A stretch of 32,000 nucleotides of DNA from Edaphobacter aggregans (GCF_003945235.1 NZ_RSDW01000001.1:3930001-3962000); one strand, 5' to 3'; positions 21,125-28,771 are shown, numbered from the stretch's first letter. Numbers and translations: made by a program. Notes: generated by a model not told the origin, from the sequence alone.

Positions 21125-21269
21125 GTGCGACTCCTTTGGGTTCTGTCCGGTTTCGTTAGCGGTTACTTTGAACGACCAGATTTTCCGGTAAAAGCGAACA
21201 GAGGGAGTCTAACGCACTTTGCGCTCCTCGTGGACCGGGAGCGCAGGGCGGATTTAGATGGGAGACGGA

Positions 21270-22325
21270 TTAGCGTTTGAGGATGGCTTCGAGGTATTCG
21301 AGGGCTCGGGGGTCTTTGGATTGGCCCAGCCAGAAGATGGCTTCTTTGCGAATGGTGGGGTTGGAGTTGGTGTCGGCTACGTGCATGAGTTGGGGGACGC
21401 CTTCGTCTTTGGGAAGCTGGCTGAGCGCGAAGACGGCTTTCTTTTTAACTTGCAGTTCGGGGTCGTTCTGGATGGCGTCGGTGATAGCGGCGCTAGCTTT
21501 CTTGCCGGCCTTTTGGGCCAGCCAGAAGATGGCCTGACCGCGGACCTGCGGGCTGGAGTCGGACTTGGCCATTTTGAGGAGTTCGTCCGTCGCGGCGGGG
21601 TCAGAGTTGATGGAGAGGTCGAAGGTTAGTTTTTCGCGGAGTTTGGGATCTTGTTCTTTGGTGATGAGCTGCTGAAGGACGAGGAAACCTTCGTGTCCGC
21701 GCTTGGCACCCAGCCAGAAGGCGGCTTTTTCGCGGAGGCGCGGGGTGTTGGTCGGGGCGGCGAGTGAGGCGAGGGCCTCAGTCGCGGCTGGAGTGGCATG
21801 CATGGCGAGGGTGACGAGGGAGTCTTCCGTGACGCGTTTGCCCTGATCGTCCTCGGGCTGAGCGGCGAGCTTGGTCAGGAAGGTTACGCTGTCGTTGGGC
21901 TGGACGCCGGTGAGCCAGGTGAAGGGGACGCCGCCTGCGTTGAGCCGGCAGCCTGCGTTGGCGGGACGGACTTTGATGATGGCTCCGTGATCGAGGCGGA
22001 GGAGGACGTACATGTTAGCTGGCGATGGTTTTTGATCGCTGCTGCTCATGCCGTCTCGCGTGGACTCGAGTTGATATTCACCGCAGCATCCATCTTCAGA
22101 CTGTGATGCGCCCTCAGAATCTGAACATGAAGAGAAATTCGTTCGTGGAAGAGCAGGCACTTCATATCCAAGCCATTGGGGCTGAGTTGAGCGCTGAAAT
22201 CGCGCCACCGTCGCGGACAGTCCTGCGCCTGCGGGCTCAGTGTTGAACTGCGTGTTGATGACTTTAGGCTGTTGCGCGACGATGGCGGACGCGCTGAGGA
22301 TGAGGGCGATGAGAAAGTGTTTCAC
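21270..22325 (-). CDS. exported HEAT-repeat protein with a Cys-containing N-terminal domain (351 aa)
   Basis: GTG start with AGGAGG 9 nt upstream. Signal peptide MKHFLIALILSASAIVAQQ. HEAT-like repeats: TPRLREKAAFWLGAK, SPQVRGQAIFWLAQ, DPELQVKKKAVFALSQL, NPTIRKEAIFWLGQS. Confidence 0.8.
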   Translation of the reverse strand: MKHFLIALILSASAIVAQQPKVINTQFNTEPAGAGLSATVARFQRSTQPQWLGYEVPALPRTNFSSCSDSEGASQSEDGCCGEYQLESTRDGMSSSDQKPSPANMYVLLRLDHGAIIKVRPANAGCRLNAGGVPFTWLTGVQPNDSVTFLTKLAAQPEDDQGKRVTEDSLVTLAMHATPAATEALASLAAPTNTPRLREKAAFWLGAKRGHEGFLVLQQLITKEQDPKLREKLTFDLSINSDPAATDELLKMAKSDSSPQVRGQAIFWLAQKAGKKASAAITDAIQNDPELQVKKKAVFALSQLPKDEGVPQLMHVADTNSNPTIRKEAIFWLGQSKDPRALEYLEAILKR

Positions 22326-22370
22326 GGCGTAGTTCCTCCTGACGATGTGGGGGGCGATTGCTGGCGTCGG

Positions 22371-23609
22371 CTACTTGTTGAGGATTTCGAGCATGTAAGC
22401 GGTGGCTTCCGGGTTGTGCATGATGCTGAGCTGCTGCACGATGGATTGCTTGAGGGCAGGGTCTTTCTCGGTTTTGGCCAGGGTGACGAGATCGTGTGCG
22501 TCGTTGGCGAGGAAGAGGGCTTGGACGGCGGCTTTCTTGGTCTCGGGGTCGGCGCTGTTCTGGTAGATGGCGAGTAGCTTTGGTGTGGCCTCGGAACCTC
22601 CGGCGATGCCGAGGTTGCGGATAGCTTTGCGGCGGAGGTCGGGGTCCTGCTCGGTGGTGGCGATGTTTCCGAGGACCTCGGCACCTTTGTGGCCTGCGGG
22701 GATGAGGCTGTTGATGATTTCGGCCTTGATCTCGGGACTCTTTGCTTCACTGTAAAGAGTCTGGAGTTGTGTAGTTGCACCGAGTGCTCCGAGGGTATGG
22801 ACGGCGGTACGGATGAGTTGCGGATCGGTCTCGTTGCGGGCGGCCTCGACGAGTTTGTCGGGACTGTTGGTGACCACGTAGGCCTGGAGGATGGCCTTCT
22901 TTACGGCTACGTTGGTGGTGTGCTGGTAGATGTCGGCAAGGACATCTACGGATTGCCTGCCGCGGATGGATAGCATGCGGATTGCCCTAATCTGCAGGGT
23001 GGGATTCGATTGGCCGCGGGCGATTTGGCCGATGAGATCCTGAGCCTGTTTGGAGTCGCTCTGGGAGAGGACGAAGAGGGCGCGCTCCTTGAGCTTGTCA
23101 GAGCTATTGCCGGCGAGAATTTGCTGGATGGCGGGGATAGCGTGGGATTCATCCTGCTGCATGATGGCACTGAGGGCGAGGAGCTTTAGTTCGTCGTCCT
23201 GGGTGGCCTCGGGCGACATGAGCTGCCCGCTGTGGCTGTGGATTTCGATTTCGAGGGCGCCGCACTCGTCGAGCCATTTGCTCTTGGGGTAGGTGCGGCG
23301 GAGCTCGGCACAGGTGCTGAGTGCTCGGGCTGACTGGCCTTCTTTGTTTTCAGCGTAGGCACGCCAGTAGAGGGCGCCTTCGGCTCGCTCGCCGCGCATC
23401 TGGACGACTTTGTTGAAGAGGTCGACGGCGTCGGACCAGCGTCCTTCGTTGATGGCGCGGGTGCCGTCGTTGTAGAGGGCGTCATCCTTGGCGGCGGGGG
23501 AGAGTTCGTAGGCGATGAGCTCCGGCTTGACGAGCTCGGCAGAGAAGGCCTGCGGCGCAAAGAGAGGAGAGGCGAGGATGGCAGCGAAGATGAGTGATGT
23601 GTTCTTCAT
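22371..23609 (-). CDS. exported TPR plus HEAT-repeat protein (412 aa)
   Basis: Signal peptide MKNTSLIFAAILASPLFAPQAFSA. N-terminus is TPR-like (GRWSDAVDLFNKVV...GALYWRAYAENKEG). HEAT-like repeats: NPTLQIRAIRMLS, DPQLIRTAVHTLGALG, DPDLRRKAIRNLGIAG, DPETKKAAVQALF, DPALKQSIVQQLS. Its ATG directly abuts the upstream stop (TAAATG). Confidence 0.8.
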   Translation of the reverse strand: MKNTSLIFAAILASPLFAPQAFSAELVKPELIAYELSPAAKDDALYNDGTRAINEGRWSDAVDLFNKVVQMRGERAEGALYWRAYAENKEGQSARALSTCAELRRTYPKSKWLDECGALEIEIHSHSGQLMSPEATQDDELKLLALSAIMQQDESHAIPAIQQILAGNSSDKLKERALFVLSQSDSKQAQDLIGQIARGQSNPTLQIRAIRMLSIRGRQSVDVLADIYQHTTNVAVKKAILQAYVVTNSPDKLVEAARNETDPQLIRTAVHTLGALGATTQLQTLYSEAKSPEIKAEIINSLIPAGHKGAEVLGNIATTEQDPDLRRKAIRNLGIAGGSEATPKLLAIYQNSADPETKKAAVQALFLANDAHDLVTLAKTEKDPALKQSIVQQLSIMHNPEATAYMLEILNK

Positions 23610-24383
23610 TTAGATGGATACCCCTTTCGTTCGGACGGCTCCGGTTTGCTGCTCTTTTTCGTCGCCTTGCACGCGGGAGCGCAGGACGCGGACTTCGAAG
23701 AGGAGGCCGTCGGTGTTCATTTCTTTTTGCAACTCGGCGAGGCGGGCAGGGCTTGGGTTGTCGGGTTCGTTGGCAATCTCGACGAGGACGCGCTCGAGGC
23801 GGTCGAGGGCTGCAGTTAGAGCGGGATCGCCTGATTTGGCTGCGCTCGCGCGGTAGAGGCGATTGGCGGAGAGAAGGTCCTGTGCTTCAGCTTTTACGGG
23901 TGCCGCGGCTTCGGCGGAGTCTGCGTGTTTGAGTTCGACCAAGAGGCGCTCGGAGCGGTCGAGGTGGTCGCCAAGGACTACGAGGACGATGGGCTGACGA
24001 GGTGCATTGTTCGCTGCCGTCTGGATTTGGGCCGGGTGTTGATGGTTCTCCCATTGACGGCCGGCGAAGAAGGCTACGGCGACTAGGAGTGCGCATCCGG
24101 TGACGAAGGCGAGGGCCTTCAGATTGGTCAAGCGGGTCCAGAGGCTTTGATGCTTCTGTTCGTAAACCGGCACGAAGTTGCGGATGGACTGCCAGACATG
24201 CTCGCCATATTGGGCGTCGCGGGCGGGTGGAGTGATGGGCTCGATTGCGGCGAGGTCGTTGCGGAGTGCGGCGTAGATGTCAGCGCATTGACTGCATTCG
24301 CGCAGATGGCCATCGATGCGCGTGGGCTGCTGGGATTCTCCGTAGTAATGCTCGATAAGTTGTTCTTCGGTCAGATGGTTCAT
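23610..24383 (-). CDS. transmembrane zf-HC2 (ZAS-type) anti-sigma factor (257 aa)
   Basis: The N-terminal HLRECSQC fits the H-x3-C-x2-C motif. There is a single TM helix (LKALAFVTGCALLVAVAFFAG) and a helical extracytoplasmic C-terminal domain of about 140 aa. The start overlaps the upstream stop (ATGA). Confidence 0.82.
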   Translation of the reverse strand: MNHLTEEQLIEHYYGESQQPTRIDGHLRECSQCADIYAALRNDLAAIEPITPPARDAQYGEHVWQSIRNFVPVYEQKHQSLWTRLTNLKALAFVTGCALLVAVAFFAGRQWENHQHPAQIQTAANNAPRQPIVLVVLGDHLDRSERLLVELKHADSAEAAAPVKAEAQDLLSANRLYRASAAKSGDPALTAALDRLERVLVEIANEPDNPSPARLAELQKEMNTDGLLFEVRVLRSRVQGDEKEQQTGAVRTKGVSI

Positions 24384-24535
24384 GCAATTACCTTGAGTAG
24401 CGTGAGGCTGCGGCGAAGCGCGGCATAGGTGTCAGCACAGTCGCTGCACTTGCGCAGGTGGGTTGCCACAGGTTCGGGTTGGGGGGTGTCCTTGTAGAAG
24501 TACGCGACGAGTTCTTCTTCGGTTAGGTGCTTCAT
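24380..24535 (-). CDS. 51-aa soluble zf-HC2 mini anti-sigma paralogue (absent from the ORF track because it is under 60 aa)
   Basis: Hand translation: MKHLTEEELVAYFYKDTPQPEPVATHLRKCSDCADTYAALRRSLTLLKVIA. It retains H-x3-C-x2-C. By hand alignment, 25 of 51 residues are identical to the N-terminus of the downstream anti-sigma. ATGA overlaps occur at both ends (sigma stop 24532-24534, next start 24383). Confidence 0.62.
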   Translation of the reverse strand: MKHLTEEELVAYFYKDTPQPEPVATHLRKCSDCADTYAALRRSLTLLKVIA

Positions 24536-25104
24536 GCGTTCACCCTGAGTGGTGCCAGGCCGCGGCGGAGTTTCTGTACGGCACGGAAGACCGCTTGTTT
24601 GGCGGAGTTGGGAGCGATGTGGAGCGTGGCGGCGATCTCTTCAGTGGAACGGGCTTCCATGTGGCGGAGGATGAAGGCGGTGCGCTCGGTGGGGGTGAGA
24701 CGCTGCATGGCGCGGGCCTGGAGGGCTTCGATCTCCTGGCTGAGGAGGAGGCGCTCGGGATCGGCGGCGGTGTCGGCGACCTGCACCTGATGCTGAGTGG
24801 GGTCGGCGTCTTCGGCGATCTGATAGTTGGCGGCGGGTTGTCGTTTGTTCTTCATATTGAGAGCACAGTTGACTGCGATACGGTAGATCCAGGTTCCGAA
24901 CTCAGATCGTGACTCGAAGCTTTCGAGCTTCTGATAGCCGCGGAGGAAGGCTTCCTGAACGACCTCTTCGGCGTCGGCTTCGTCGCCGGTGATGCGGAAG
25001 GCTACGCGGAAGACAGTCGGGCTGTGGCGTACGACGAGCTTGCCGTAGGCCTCTTTGTCTCCGGTGAGAACCGCCCGGATGATCGAGTGGTCGTTCTCTT
25101 CCAT
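24532..25104 (-). CDS. ECF-type sigma-70 family RNA polymerase sigma factor (190 aa)
   Basis: Region 2 pattern: AYGKLVVRHSPTVFRVAFRITGDEADAEEVVQEAFLRGYQKL..F.TWIYRIAVNCALN. Region 4 pattern: LTPTERTAFILRHMEARSTEEIAATLHIAPNSAKQAVFRAVQKLR. Confidence 0.92.
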   Translation of the reverse strand: MEENDHSIIRAVLTGDKEAYGKLVVRHSPTVFRVAFRITGDEADAEEVVQEAFLRGYQKLESFESRSEFGTWIYRIAVNCALNMKNKRQPAANYQIAEDADPTQHQVQVADTAADPERLLLSQEIEALQARAMQRLTPTERTAFILRHMEARSTEEIAATLHIAPNSAKQAVFRAVQKLRRGLAPLRVNA

Positions 25105-25255
25105 TCAGCGCATTAGACAGGGTTTTAGGGCGCCGGTTAGGAAGAATTTTTCGTATCGGATTTTGGAAGAGATCCGGGTTCGGGATACGGGGTGTTGAGT
25201 CGCGCTACACTGACGTAGTTGGGGGGCCCAGGCAAGCCGATTTGCGTGGAGGGTC

Positions 25256-26941
25256 ATGCTGAGAAGCTATCCGCAATGCGAAGAGAGATTTAGACGGGCC
25301 GGGATTTGGGTGTGGGTCCTCTTTGTTCTGCTGCTTTTACCGGTGGGAAGCTGGGGCGTGGTCTGGGGGCAGGGTTTGTCTTCGGCTGTGAAGTCTGCTA
25401 CTGGCGGCTCGCCCCCGCCTGCTGATGCGACTGCCGCGCCTGTGGTGGCTCCTCCACCGCCTGTTCCTGCTGATCCGCTGGGGCGGACTTCGCCGCATGG
25501 GACTGTGCTCGGGTTTTTGCGGGCGGCGGAGGAGAAGGACTACACCAAGGCTGCGAAATTTCTTGATGGAAAGCGGTCGCCGGAGCAGGCGACTGAGCTG
25601 GTTGTGCAGCTGAAGTACCTGCTGGATCAGGGGCTTTCGACCAGCCTCGACGACATTTCGCGCTCGCCCCAAAAAGATATTGAGGACGAGCATCGGGTGA
25701 CGAGGGAGCGGATCGGTCTTCTAAAGACCCCGGATGGTGAGATGGAGGTGCTGCTCGATCTTGTAAAGAGACCAGGGGAAGCGTCTATCTGGCTCTTTTC
25801 GCAAGAGACACTGGACCGCGTTCCGGAAGCCTATTCCAGCGAGCACCGCAAGGACATAGAGGATTACTTTCCGGCATGGTCTCAAAACATTCGCTTTCTC
25901 TCTGTCCCGCTGTGGCGCTGGGGCACGATCCTCGTCTACCTGCTGATGGTGTTTTTGGCAGCCAGCCTTATTACCAGAGCGATGATCTGGCTGTTTCGAC
26001 GGCTATTCAAAAATAGAGTGACTGCGAGCGTAGAAGAGTCTGTTCTCGCGCTGAAAGCGCCGATCTTCTGTGTTTTGGGTGCGATTATGAATCGCGCTGC
26101 GGCCGGCTACGCCCGCACTGCGTTGAGCCGCCACTATTGGAGTGTCGTCGGGCTTATTTTGTTGTGGGTGAGTGGGGCGTGGCTGCTGGTGCGGATCACG
26201 AACATTCTCGTCTCGGTGTGGCGTCACAGGCTCCTACTGAAGATGCAGGTGGAGCGGGCCACGCTTGTCAGTCTGCTGGGGAGAATATTTACGATTCTGG
26301 TCGGGCTCGTGCTGGTGCTTGTGCTGCTGGCACAGGCCGGCGTGAATGTCTCTGCAATGGTTGCCGGTTTAGGTATCGGCGGCGTTGCGCTGGCTCTTGC
26401 GGCGCAGAAGACCCTGGCGGATTTGTTTGGCGGACTCTCCATCGTGATGCGTGGCGCGGTACGGGTGGGCGACTTCTGCCAGATCGACGGGCTCACCGGG
26501 ACTGTCGAAGATATCGGTACCAGCTCTTTGAGTCTGCGAACACTGGGTCGCTCCGTGGTGTCGATTCCGAATTCGAAGGTGGCGGAGGTGAATCTCGAGA
26601 ACTTTGCAATGCGTGATCAGTTCTGGCTGAACCAGACTTTCACGCTGCGGTTCGATACGCCACATGCAGTCGTGAGGGAGGTGCTGGAGAAGATCGTGCA
26701 GTTGCTGCTGGCGCATCCGGAGTTCAATAAGAATTCAGCGCGGGCTCGACTGATTAATTTGACCCCATCAGGGCCGCAGATTGAGGTTTTTGCTTACTTT
26801 CGGAGGCCGGGCGCGGATTGGGCGGTGTTTTTGGGGGAGCAGGAGAAGATCATGCTCCAGATATTAACCATTGTTGAGGAGGCTGGGAGCAGCCTGGCGG
26901 CCCCGATTGGCGTGGTGCGGATGGAGAAGGAGAAGGCGTAG
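25256..26941 (+). CDS. MscS-family mechanosensitive channel with an extended N-terminal exported domain (561 aa)
   Basis: MscS core: GIGGVALALAAQKTLADLFGGLSIVMRGAVRVGDFCQIDGLTGTVEDIGTSSLSLRTLGRSVVSIPNSKV. It has an N-terminal signal/TM segment and several TM helices. Confidence 0.9.
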   Translation: MLRSYPQCEERFRRAGIWVWVLFVLLLLPVGSWGVVWGQGLSSAVKSATGGSPPPADATAAPVVAPPPPVPADPLGRTSPHGTVLGFLRAAEEKDYTKAAKFLDGKRSPEQATELVVQLKYLLDQGLSTSLDDISRSPQKDIEDEHRVTRERIGLLKTPDGEMEVLLDLVKRPGEASIWLFSQETLDRVPEAYSSEHRKDIEDYFPAWSQNIRFLSVPLWRWGTILVYLLMVFLAASLITRAMIWLFRRLFKNRVTASVEESVLALKAPIFCVLGAIMNRAAAGYARTALSRHYWSVVGLILLWVSGAWLLVRITNILVSVWRHRLLLKMQVERATLVSLLGRIFTILVGLVLVLVLLAQAGVNVSAMVAGLGIGGVALALAAQKTLADLFGGLSIVMRGAVRVGDFCQIDGLTGTVEDIGTSSLSLRTLGRSVVSIPNSKVAEVNLENFAMRDQFWLNQTFTLRFDTPHAVVREVLEKIVQLLLAHPEFNKNSARARLINLTPSGPQIEVFAYFRRPGADWAVFLGEQEKIMLQILTIVEEAGSSLAAPIGVVRMEKEKA

Positions 26942-27542: not shown

Positions 27543-27752
27543 TTAGCGGAAGATGCGTAGTTCGAGCAGGAAGAAGAAGAGTACACCTGCTGACCCGATC
27601 GTGATCCACATCTTGAGAAGGAAGGTGTTAATGCCTTCTGATGGATCCTTTACGCGAAGCATCCAGTTCGTGCAGAGAAAACCAACCGCGCAGACGGCTG
27701 TGCTGTACAGAATCATGCGAACGAGTGGGAACAAAAGGCGGTGGGCGGTCAC
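27543..27752 (-). CDS. possible small two-TM membrane protein (69 aa)
   Basis: GTG-start ORF (alternative ATG at 27716) with two hydrophobic segments. There is no convincing SD, and it begins only 20 nt after a strong hairpin. It is the only non-overlapping ORF in a 310-bp gap. Confidence 0.35.
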   Translation of the reverse strand: MTAHRLLFPLVRMILYSTAVCAVGFLCTNWMLRVKDPSEGINTFLLKMWITIGSAGVLFFFLLELRIFR

Positions 27753-27771
27753 GTCGATTCCCCAGTCGTTA

Positions 27772-27817
27772 TAAGACTAGAAGAGGCGGCACGAGTGGCC
27801 GCCTCTTCTCAGTCTTA
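27772..27817 (-). terminator. strong hairpin immediately downstream of ilvE
   Basis: TAAGACT+AGAAGAGGCGGC (27772-27790) pairs with GCCGCCTCTTCT+c+AGTCTTA (27798-27817). That gives 19 bp with one bulge and a 7-nt loop. It lies 12 nt after the ilvE stop. There is no clear U-tract. Confidence 0.6.
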
Positions 27818-27829
27818 CAGAACGCAGAT

Positions 27830-28771
27830 TTATACGGCTACGGGTTCGCCCACCTTGACGTTGACCGGGGTGAGCCAGTTGTGGCGGTCGGGCTTGAGTC
27901 CGTTGACAATGTTGAAGAACTCGTCGTGCAGGGCCGTGGTGATGGGGCCCATGGTGCCGTCGCCTACGAGGATGCGGTCGACCGAGCGAAGGTGGGTGAC
28001 CTCGGCGGCAGTGCCGGTGAAGAAGGCTTCGTCACAGATGTAGAGGAGCTCGCGGGGGAGCGCCTGTTCTACGACTTCGATGCCGAGCTGCTTGGCGAGG
28101 GTGATGACGGAGCTACGTGTGATGCCGTTGAGAACGGAGTTCGCGAGAGGCGTGGTGTAGAGGACGCCGCCGCGGACGATGAAGAGGTTCTCGCCGGAGC
28201 CTTCGGAGAGGTAGCCGTTGACGTCGAGCGCGATTCCTTCGGAGTAGCCGTTGATCTCGGCTTCCATGCGGATGAGCTGCGAGTTCATGTAGTTGGCGCC
28301 GGCCTTTGCGAGTGAGGGCATGGTGTTGGGTGCGAGGCGTGACCAGCTGGAGACACAGACATCGGCGCCATCGTTGCCGGGGACATATTTGCCCCAGGGG
28401 AAGTTGGCGATGTAGACCTCGATGGGAGACTTCAGCGGATTGACGCCGACTTCGCCGTAGCCACGGAAGGCGATGGGGCGGATGTAGCAGGGCGCGACGC
28501 CGTTTGCCTCGATCACATCGACGACTGCGGAGCAGAGTTGGTCGACGGTGTAGGGGAGGGGCATGCGGTAGATCTTGGCAGAGTCGATGAGGCGGGCCAT
28601 GTGCTCGGGAAGGCGGAAGACTCCGGCGCCGTTGGGCTGCGAATAACAGCGGATCCCCTCGAATACAGAGGAGCCATAGTGGATGACGTGGCTCATGACA
28701 TGGATCTGTGCCTTGTCCCAGGGAATGAGCTGTCCGTTGTGCCAGATGTTCGCGGTGGTTTGTAAGGCCAT
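27830..28771 (-). CDS. ilvE: branched-chain amino acid aminotransferase
   Basis: 313 aa. N-terminus IWHNGQLIPWDKAQIHVMSHVIHYGSSVFEGIRCY and later YIRP..FRG, GANY, GSGENLF, FFTGTAAEV motifs fit class IV aminotransferases. AGGAG lies 6 nt upstream of the ATG. Confidence 0.93.
   Translation of the reverse strand: MALQTTANIWHNGQLIPWDKAQIHVMSHVIHYGSSVFEGIRCYSQPNGAGVFRLPEHMARLIDSAKIYRMPLPYTVDQLCSAVVDVIEANGVAPCYIRPIAFRGYGEVGVNPLKSPIEVYIANFPWGKYVPGNDGADVCVSSWSRLAPNTMPSLAKAGANYMNSQLIRMEAEINGYSEGIALDVNGYLSEGSGENLFIVRGGVLYTTPLANSVLNGITRSSVITLAKQLGIEVVEQALPRELLYICDEAFFTGTAAEVTHLRSVDRILVGDGTMGPITTALHDEFFNIVNGLKPDRHNWLTPVNVKVGEPVAV

Follow-up and report, generated by a model that had tools for sequence, protein, structure and literature searches.

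The stretch analysed here is a 32,000-nucleotide (nt) window of Edaphobacter aggregans (GCF_003945235.1, NZ_RSDW01000001.1:3930001-3962000), whose minus strand carries, at positions 21270-25104, a gene cluster headed by an extracytoplasmic function (ECF) sigma factor. The sigma gene is followed by a gene for a short protein (mini-ZAS), a gene for a single-pass transmembrane (TM) anti-sigma factor, and two genes for HEAT-repeat proteins of 412 and 351 amino acids (aa), both predicted to be exported. A sequence-only reading of this stretch had described a five-gene operon; all five open reading frames (ORFs) and their order stand, but the conserved unit comprises four genes, as the mini-ZAS is lineage-specific. 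This four-gene cassette, composed of the sigma factor, the TM anti-sigma factor and the two HEAT proteins, is kept as one unit across the phylum Acidobacteriota. The features of the locus are as follows:

25113..25140 (-), ECF-type promoter, -35 element CTAACC at 25140-25135, -10 element GTCTAA at 25118-25113
24532..25104 (-), ECF sigma factor, 190 aa, from the ORF call with Pfam and NCBIfam matches; RpoE/AlgU/SigW-like
24380..24535 (-), mini-ZAS, 51 aa, truncated and predicted soluble paralogue of the anti-sigma N-terminus
23610..24383 (-), single-pass TM anti-sigma factor, 257 aa, with an HxxxCxxC motif and an AlphaFold2 (AF2) model
22371..23609 (-), predicted exported TPR-like/HEAT protein, 412 aa, with a HEAT_2 match and a signal-peptide-like N-terminus
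22335..22340 (-), Shine-Dalgarno (SD) sequence AGGAGG, read in the sequence, 9 nt 5' of the GTG of the 351-aa gene
21270..22325 (-), predicted exported protein with a four-Cys beta domain and HEAT repeats, 351 aa, GTG start
21221..21244 (-), GC-rich hairpin GCGCUCC...GGAGCGC, possible terminator without a U-tract

The junctions claimed in the sequence-only reading can all be read in the sequence. The sigma and mini-ZAS genes share an ATGA overlap at 24535-24532, the mini-ZAS and TM anti-sigma genes share a second at 24383-24380, the TM anti-sigma and 412-aa genes abut in a TAAATG at 23612-23607, and a 45-nt gap (22326-22370), which holds the AGGAGG, lies between the 412-aa and 351-aa genes.

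Conservation of the Four-Gene Unit

The conservation of the cassette was followed from two of its proteins. In a scan anchored on the 351-aa protein, with one genome per GTDB species, 499 relatives were found. The best 80 of these show 54-94% identity and are, with few exceptions, labelled Acidobacteriaceae or relatives; their loci were taken with flanks of ±8 kb per genome, and the ORFs of each were searched with the window proteins. At every one of these best 80 loci with enough flank, the genes for the sigma factor, the TM anti-sigma factor, a 412-like protein directly downstream of the anti-sigma, and a 351-like protein lie in this order on one strand, and they usually overlap or abut. More distant copies were reached by searching the N-terminal domain (N-domain) of the 351-aa protein alone against 1.8 billion cluster representatives. 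The family so defined comprises 580 clusters at 50% identity, in which the domain always occupies residues ~20-165 of proteins of 340-440 aa. The full four-gene module is kept at 28-35% N-domain identity (loci L083, L084/85, and L087), and the four genes are also present at L089, in a clade named as Vicinamibacterales by profile search, and likewise at L090. The module is found, then, in both Terriglobia and Vicinamibacteria.

In the reverse test, a metagenome scan was anchored on the anti-sigma factor of a distant clade, which gave 80 loci. The sigma gene lies upstream in 71 of 71, a 412-like gene downstream in 54 of 57, and a 351-like gene after it in 23 of 24, the nominal misses being attributable to short flanks or to longer N-terminal extensions. 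Between clades, the genes that flank the module bear no relation to one another; since they are wholly different, the cassette is autonomous. Gene content, order, and junctions are direct observations in these loci, and so is the co-conservation of the HEAT genes with the sigma/anti-sigma pair over 80 genome and 80 metagenome loci; the lack of co-conservation that the sequence-only reading had named as its own refutation was not found. Acidobacteriota rank among the most abundant bacteria in soil, and to our knowledge almost nothing is known of their environmental sensing; few signalling units besides this cassette are conserved over the span from Terriglobia to Vicinamibacteria.

Two further observations were made among these loci. 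Close copies of the module (L047, on the 496-kb contig CAVRHU010000010.1, and protein P0181) occur on MAG contigs labelled 'uncultured Gammaproteobacteria' and 'Steroidobacteraceae bacterium', with 74% identity for the 351-aa protein and 73% for the anti-sigma, and these labels probably reflect mis-binning or mislabelling rather than transfer. At L083:7312-10761, the genes that come after the module encode, in this order, an M1 aminopeptidase whose ERAP1_C domain is HEAT-like and a bacterial RNase A-like toxin/CdiI_2 immunity pair; weak ERAP1_C matches are present in 7 of 11 N-domain-HEAT proteins, and the arrangement at L083 is probably coincidental.

Domain Architecture of the Cassette Proteins

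According to Pfam, the sigma factor contains Sigma70_r2 (68.9 bits) and Sigma70_r4_2 (48.5 bits) domains, and a score of 96.9 bits against NCBIfam TIGR02937 (cut-off 42.9) places it among the ECF (group 4) sigma factors. Its closest solved structures are AlgU (6in7), RpoE (1or7), and SigW (5wuq). All equivalog models failed: the RpoE model TIGR02939 gave 110.3 bits against a cut-off of 236.15, the SigW models NF007223 and TIGR02948 gave 118.2 against 209 and 108 against 243.1, and the PRK11922 cut-off was missed as well. Because the RpoE equivalog stays below its cut-off, and because Pfam finds no RseA, RseB, or RseC families in the downstream proteins, the cassette lies outside ECF02. The main text of the ECF classification 2.0 article describes no Acidobacteria-dominated group with a HEAT context, and a computational ECF (sub)group for this sigma factor may already exist. 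In Granulicella sp. WH15 (PMC7074687), high sugar induces a 'SigW' that is a possible orthologue.

The anti-sigma factor has four parts: (i) an HxxxCxxC domain at residues 1-87; (ii) a TM segment at ~88-110; (iii) a predicted periplasmic four-helix bundle at ~131-243; and (iv) a short tail. His3, His26, Cys30, and Cys33 are invariant in 48 homologues, and the HxxxCxxC core (His26/Cys30/Cys33) is also kept in distant clades. With its H-x3-C-x2-C, an upstream His, and an N-terminus that is helical in the AF2 model, the protein carries the ZAS motif. Several further motifs are retained across clades (HYYGE, AFFAGR, GDHLxRS, ANRLYR, LERxLxE, and GLLF). The protein has no Pfam family, every database copy is named 'hypothetical protein', its score against the NCBIfam 'antisigma' model is 26.7 bits (cut-off 100), and a PDB sequence search gave no significant match to solved anti-sigma domains.

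In anti-sigma factors, the cytoplasmic domain is usually better conserved than the periplasmic one, and here this pattern is reversed. Within Acidobacteriaceae, mean identity is 64% for the periplasmic bundle as against 45% for the cytoplasmic, sigma-binding domain, and at four distant loci the values are 41-43% and 21-37%, respectively. Arg143, Ser144, Glu145, Arg146, Asn174, Arg175, Tyr177, Glu197, and Arg198 form the conserved face of the predicted bundle. The better conservation of the bundle suggests that it has a conserved protein partner in the periplasm, which would most plausibly be the HEAT proteins, acting in an RseB- or ExoR-like manner. As for the end of the protein, most of 77 Acidobacteriaceae copies terminate in K-G-[VA]-[ST]-[IL] (23610-23627 (-) in the window), a tail that a PDZ-type protease or the groove of a HEAT protein could recognise in this clade. 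A conserved degron of the form KG[VA]S[IL] was considered and rejected, since the sequence is absent in distant clades and is therefore not a general mechanism.

Both large downstream proteins are HEAT proteins, with HEAT_2 scores of 81.8 bits (412-aa protein) and 84.3 bits (351-aa protein) against a Pfam cut-off of 27.7; the 351-aa protein also matches HEAT_PBS (43.8 against 20.9). The 412-aa protein had been labelled a TPR+HEAT protein, a label of which the HEAT half is borne out. Its TPR half is weak, all matches of the N-terminal region (~39-125) being sub-threshold (TPR_6 23.9 against 26.3, YfiO 24.6 against 25, and TPR_16 21 against 32.7), with weak matches to BamD and YbgF in NCBIfam. 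Two residues of this region, Cys100 and Cys116, occur together in 73 sequences and are jointly missing from 49, with a single mixed case, a covariation that marks them as a disulfide signature.

The 351-aa protein consists of a signal peptide, a beta-rich N-domain (~19-142) with Cys67, Cys80, Cys81, and Cys126, and a HEAT region (143-351). The Cys cluster that had been pointed out in a distinct N-terminal domain is indeed there, as SSCSDSEGASQSEDGCCGEY at residues 65-84. In the AF2 model (pLDDT 84), the N-domain is a beta-sheet-plus-helix fold, residues 143-350 form paired helices, and the Cys loop (59-103) is of low confidence. Foldseek matched this model to alphaRep/HEAT folds only (probability 1.00), with the HEAT part dominating all matches, and the N-domain has no Pfam family match. 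Four Cys are present in the N-domain of 89 of 108 homologues, even numbers dominating, and the HEAT part is Cys-free in 106 of the 108. The domain architecture and these Cys patterns are observed directly. For both large proteins, the predicted signal peptides recur as signal-peptide-like N-termini in all orthologues despite low identity, as would be expected if the two proteins were exported, and the paired or covarying Cys fit an oxidising compartment. Periplasmic export of both HEAT proteins is well supported by these sequence features.

The mini-ZAS is 50% identical to residues 1-50 of the TM anti-sigma factor and, besides the window, has an in-frame copy at just three of the best 80 loci, those of the closest relatives (L003, L004, and L005). 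Its sequence shows that part of the anti-sigma gene was duplicated in this lineage. The copy is probably expressed, as a soluble ZAS fragment of three helices, which would probably add an extra cytoplasmic brake. It has exactly 51 codons in all four genomes and retains both ATGA overlaps, His3, His26, Cys30, and Cys33 (the putative zinc ligands), and the C-terminal KVIA. On balance, the evidence leans towards a functional protein. That it is instead the decaying remnant of a tandem duplication, with the ordinary four-gene operon as the working unit, has a chance that falls somewhat short of even. Its restriction to four closely related genomes, the loss of the parent's fourth helix and TM segment, and amino-acid changes in 13-16 of the 51 codons between genomes whose 351-aa proteins are 91-94% identical would all fit decay. 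On the other hand, the ORF is intact in all four genomes, with no frameshift and no stop, and its overlaps, putative ligands, and KVIA have survived. Codon changes in the mini-ZAS, which changes faster than its neighbours, run at ~1.3 non-synonymous to 1 synonymous, below the roughly 3:1 that we estimate for neutral drift; constraint on it is therefore relaxed but not absent.

Promoter, Transcript Ends and Neighbouring Genes

The promoter motif emerged from an alignment of the 140 nt upstream of the sigma gene at 75 loci, a simple scan for GGAAC...CGT promoters having given no match. The alignment contains a sharply conserved block, CCTAACCG-N15-TGTCTAA-TGCGCTGA-ATG. In the window, TAACC-N16-GTCTAA has a single match in 32 kb (0 expected by chance), with 8 nt between the -10 GTCTAA and the sigma ATG. 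A relaxed form, TAAC[CT]-N14-17-[GA]TC[TC]AA, lies upstream of the sigma gene in ~74 of 75 Acidobacteriaceae loci, and no strong second copy was found within ±8 kb at ~75 genome loci, where 4 weak matches with a -10 variant (TCCAA) occur. The motif is also present in 61 of 63 distant and anti-sigma-anchored loci; the in-frame ATG comes 7-8 nt after it at 54 loci and 11 nt after it at 6. Two features of ECF systems are thus found here: the sigma gene is directly followed by that of an anti-sigma, and in front of it lies a predicted autoregulatory promoter that combines an AAC-containing -35 with a conserved -10.

The motif and its spacing, which are observed, lead to three predictions. Firstly, with a promoter that ends 7-8 nt from the ATG, the sigma transcript should have no leader or almost none; no SD sequence is present upstream of the sigma gene. 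Secondly, a conserved ECF-type promoter in front of the sigma gene implies that the operon is positively autoregulated. Thirdly, since the HEAT genes stand behind the only such promoter in the window, they are very probably part of the sigma factor's own output, one of the two roles (the other being that of periplasmic co-sensors) for which the sequence-only reading had named their products as candidates. The sites of sigmaE and AlgU have the form GGAACTT-N16-TCTGA/TCAAA, and the AAC-N18-TCTAA of the cassette shares this geometry, which fits AlgU, RpoE, and SigW as the closest solved relatives of the sigma factor. A promoter so sharply defined could be used for reporters, regulon prediction, and the engineering of orthogonal switches.

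Two side observations concern the region between the -10 element and the sigma gene. The 8-nt TGCGCTGA is far more conserved than a spacer requires; distant clades differ in it, and spacing alone is kept. At 25102-25116 (-), the sequence TCTA-ATG-CGC-TGA-ATG, which is found in most Acidobacteriaceae, contains a two-codon mini-ORF (ATG-CGC-TGA) whose stop abuts the sigma ATG.

At the other end of the operon, the hairpin at 21221-21244 lies ~25 nt 3' of the stop of the 351-aa gene and folds at -26.4 kcal/mol (z = -2.6 against shuffles). It was not called in a consensus terminator scan, and it may mark the end of the operon transcript. The hairpin separates the operon from a GH38 mannosidase gene, which was considered as an operon member and rejected: it lies downstream in one subclade only, sometimes with 1-2 kb inserted, and carries no motif. 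Upstream, an MscS-like gene (25256-26941) is divergent from the operon with 151 bp between, as had been read from the sequence, and from this neighbour a connection to envelope or osmotic stress had been surmised. MscS is divergent from the cassette in only 8 of ~75 Acidobacteriaceae loci, among them Edaphobacter aggregans and the closest relatives of the window, and no distant locus has this arrangement; a motif scan of the window found no promoter motif facing the MscS gene. As neither the MscS nor the GH38 neighbour is conserved, the osmotic hint fails. A role in defence was likewise rejected, as PADLOC gave a weak generic HEAT-ARM match and there is no defence context.

The window as a whole (1-32000) displays extreme strand asymmetry, with a GC skew of +0.15 to +0.36 on the plus strand nearly throughout, and third codon positions follow the strand of the DNA and not that of the gene. 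C3 is 0.46-0.73 and G3 0.12-0.21 in minus-strand genes, against a G3 of 0.43-0.57 and a C3 of 0.16-0.22 in plus-strand genes. The ECF operon belongs to the former, with their C-rich coding strand. Where two long ORFs overlap on opposite strands, at 27641-28315 (+) and 27830-28771 (-), the former is probably not a real gene because its G3 (0.21) and C3 (0.36) are atypical of its strand.

Proposed Mechanism and Comparison with Known Systems

The cassette may be understood as a periplasm-controlled, RpoE-like ECF module in which the two solenoids are accessory modulators that act on the anti-sigma factor, a proposal to which we would give an even chance. The sigma factor would transcribe its own operon from TAACC-N16-GTCTAA, and the translationally coupled anti-sigma factor would hold it at the membrane through the cytoplasmic HxxxCxxC domain. 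The solenoids, predicted to be Sec-exported and to contain disulfides, would sit in the periplasm on the four-helix bundle of the anti-sigma and, by analogy with RseB/MucB on RseA/MucA and ExoR on ExoS, set its stability or conformation. An envelope, redox, or metal cue could then act on the solenoids, with the Cys-rich domain as the likeliest sensor, and loosen the complex, upon which the anti-sigma would be inactivated (probably by regulated proteolysis) and the sigma factor freed. The freed sigma factor would raise the levels of all four proteins and thereby reset the system. A more specific version, in which the bundle and the two solenoids form a three-part periplasmic receptor with the four-Cys beta domain as its redox, metal, or envelope sensor, is put forward tentatively.

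Several results weigh against solenoids that modulate the anti-sigma. The commonest weak match of the anti-sigma domain, zf-HC2, occurs in 9 of 48 members without reaching significance in any of them (best E = 0.071); the AF2 model of the anti-sigma has a low pLDDT of 61 overall (64-81 in the periplasmic part), and Foldseek matches it to generic four-helix bundles only, with E > 0.1. A mirror-tree/partial-Mantel test found all domain pairs to covary (r ~0.9), and since every pair correlates, the test does not discriminate. Nor is the cassette accompanied by a linked gene for a site-1 or site-2 protease. Finally, a homologue with N-domain and HEAT repeats (L086:6001-7071, 29% N-domain identity) is found outside any ECF context, and the N-domain-HEAT family is therefore not always tied to the sigma/anti-sigma pair. 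The neighbours of this homologue are a TPR_12 protein, a 75-aa ORF, and an ankyrin-repeat protein.

The L086 homologue would also fit a reading in which the solenoids are output only, for instance periplasmic scaffolds or chaperones for protection or repair of the envelope, without any part in sensing, and the bundle of the anti-sigma senses alone. HEAT/alphaRep solenoids are generic protein-binding scaffolds, and the HEAT genes stand behind an autoregulated promoter whose motif is the sole copy in the window and within ±8 kb in ~75 genomes, which makes the operon perhaps the main or only target of the sigma factor. Against this stand the absolute co-occurrence of the HEAT genes with the anti-sigma gene, in a fixed order over phylum-level divergence, and their frequent start/stop overlap or abutment with it, while the conserved periplasmic domain of the anti-sigma fits a protein partner better than a variable ligand. 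Output alone, the main rival, is regarded as unlikely, if well short of negligible. It is very improbable that the cytoplasmic HxxxCxxC domain (together with the mini-ZAS) is itself a thiol or metal switch for oxidative or metal stress like RsrA or ChrR, with periplasmic parts that serve as an anchor or are unrelated: His3, His26, Cys30, and Cys33 are invariant, match the zinc ligand pattern of ChrR, and recur in the mini-ZAS, but many ZAS-motif anti-sigmas, for instance RsiW, are not redox sensors, conservation among the folded parts of the protein is lowest in the cytoplasmic domain and highest in the periplasmic bundle, and two obligatory exported partners would be left unexplained.

What the cassette would add depends on which of these holds. 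If the HEAT proteins are co-sensors, they would represent a new periplasmic accessory type beside RseB/MucB and ExoR, and HEAT repeats would gain a role in the bacterial periplasm; if the three-part receptor is true, it would be a new class of periplasmic ECF co-sensor, coupled to a leaderless, autoregulated sigma gene. If the HEAT proteins are only outputs, the cassette would be an ordinary uncharacterised ECF group. The sequence-only reading knew of no characterised ECF signalling module of this composition, and our search likewise found no literature that links HEAT-repeat proteins to ECF anti-sigma factors.

Among the nearest known systems are rpoE-rseA-rseB-rseC of E. coli and algU-mucA-mucB-mucC-mucD of P. 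aeruginosa. Like the cassette, for which autoregulation is predicted, these are autoregulated operons in which a sigma factor (AlgU and RpoE being the closest solved relatives of the one described here) is followed by a single-pass anti-sigma and one or more co-transcribed periplasmic accessory proteins. In the rpoE and algU systems, the accessory proteins bind the periplasmic domain of the anti-sigma and gate its proteolysis. The cassette differs in its anti-sigma, which has an HxxxCxxC motif and a predicted four-helix bundle and matches neither RseA_N nor RseA_C; in its accessory proteins, which are HEAT/TPR-like solenoids rather than RseB/MucB folds; in the lack of a linked gene for a DegS/MucD-type protease; and in its predicted leaderless start.

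In its cytoplasmic half, the anti-sigma resembles the ZAS anti-sigmas ChrR (R. sphaeroides), RsiW (B. subtilis), RslA (M. tuberculosis), and RsrA (S. coelicolor), with which it shares the N-terminal helical His...His-x3-Cys-x2-Cys and an overlapping gene directly downstream of the sigma gene, and with RsiW and RslA also the membrane anchor. Its extracytoplasmic domain, an unannotated and strongly conserved predicted four-helix bundle, sets it apart from them.

For a solenoid that acts on a membrane signalling protein, the ExoR-ExoS/ChvI system of Rhizobiales offers a functional analogy only. ExoR is an exported Sel1-repeat alpha-solenoid that binds the periplasmic domain of ExoS and holds ExoS in the off state for as long as no cue displaces the solenoid. 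Its target is a histidine kinase and not an anti-sigma, its repeats are Sel1 and not HEAT, and no homology between ExoR and the cassette proteins is known. By sequence and fold, the C-terminal halves of the two large cassette proteins match the PBS-lyase-type HEAT repeats (Pfam HEAT_2/HEAT_PBS; E. coli YibA and CpcE/F), the natural family on which the artificial alphaRep proteins are based. The known members of this group are cytoplasmic, whereas the two cassette proteins have predicted signal peptides and conserved Cys pairs, and in them the HEAT repeats follow a TPR-like region in one case and a novel four-Cys beta domain in the other. Set beside these systems, the cassette is an uncharacterised ECF module whose design varies a well-known theme.

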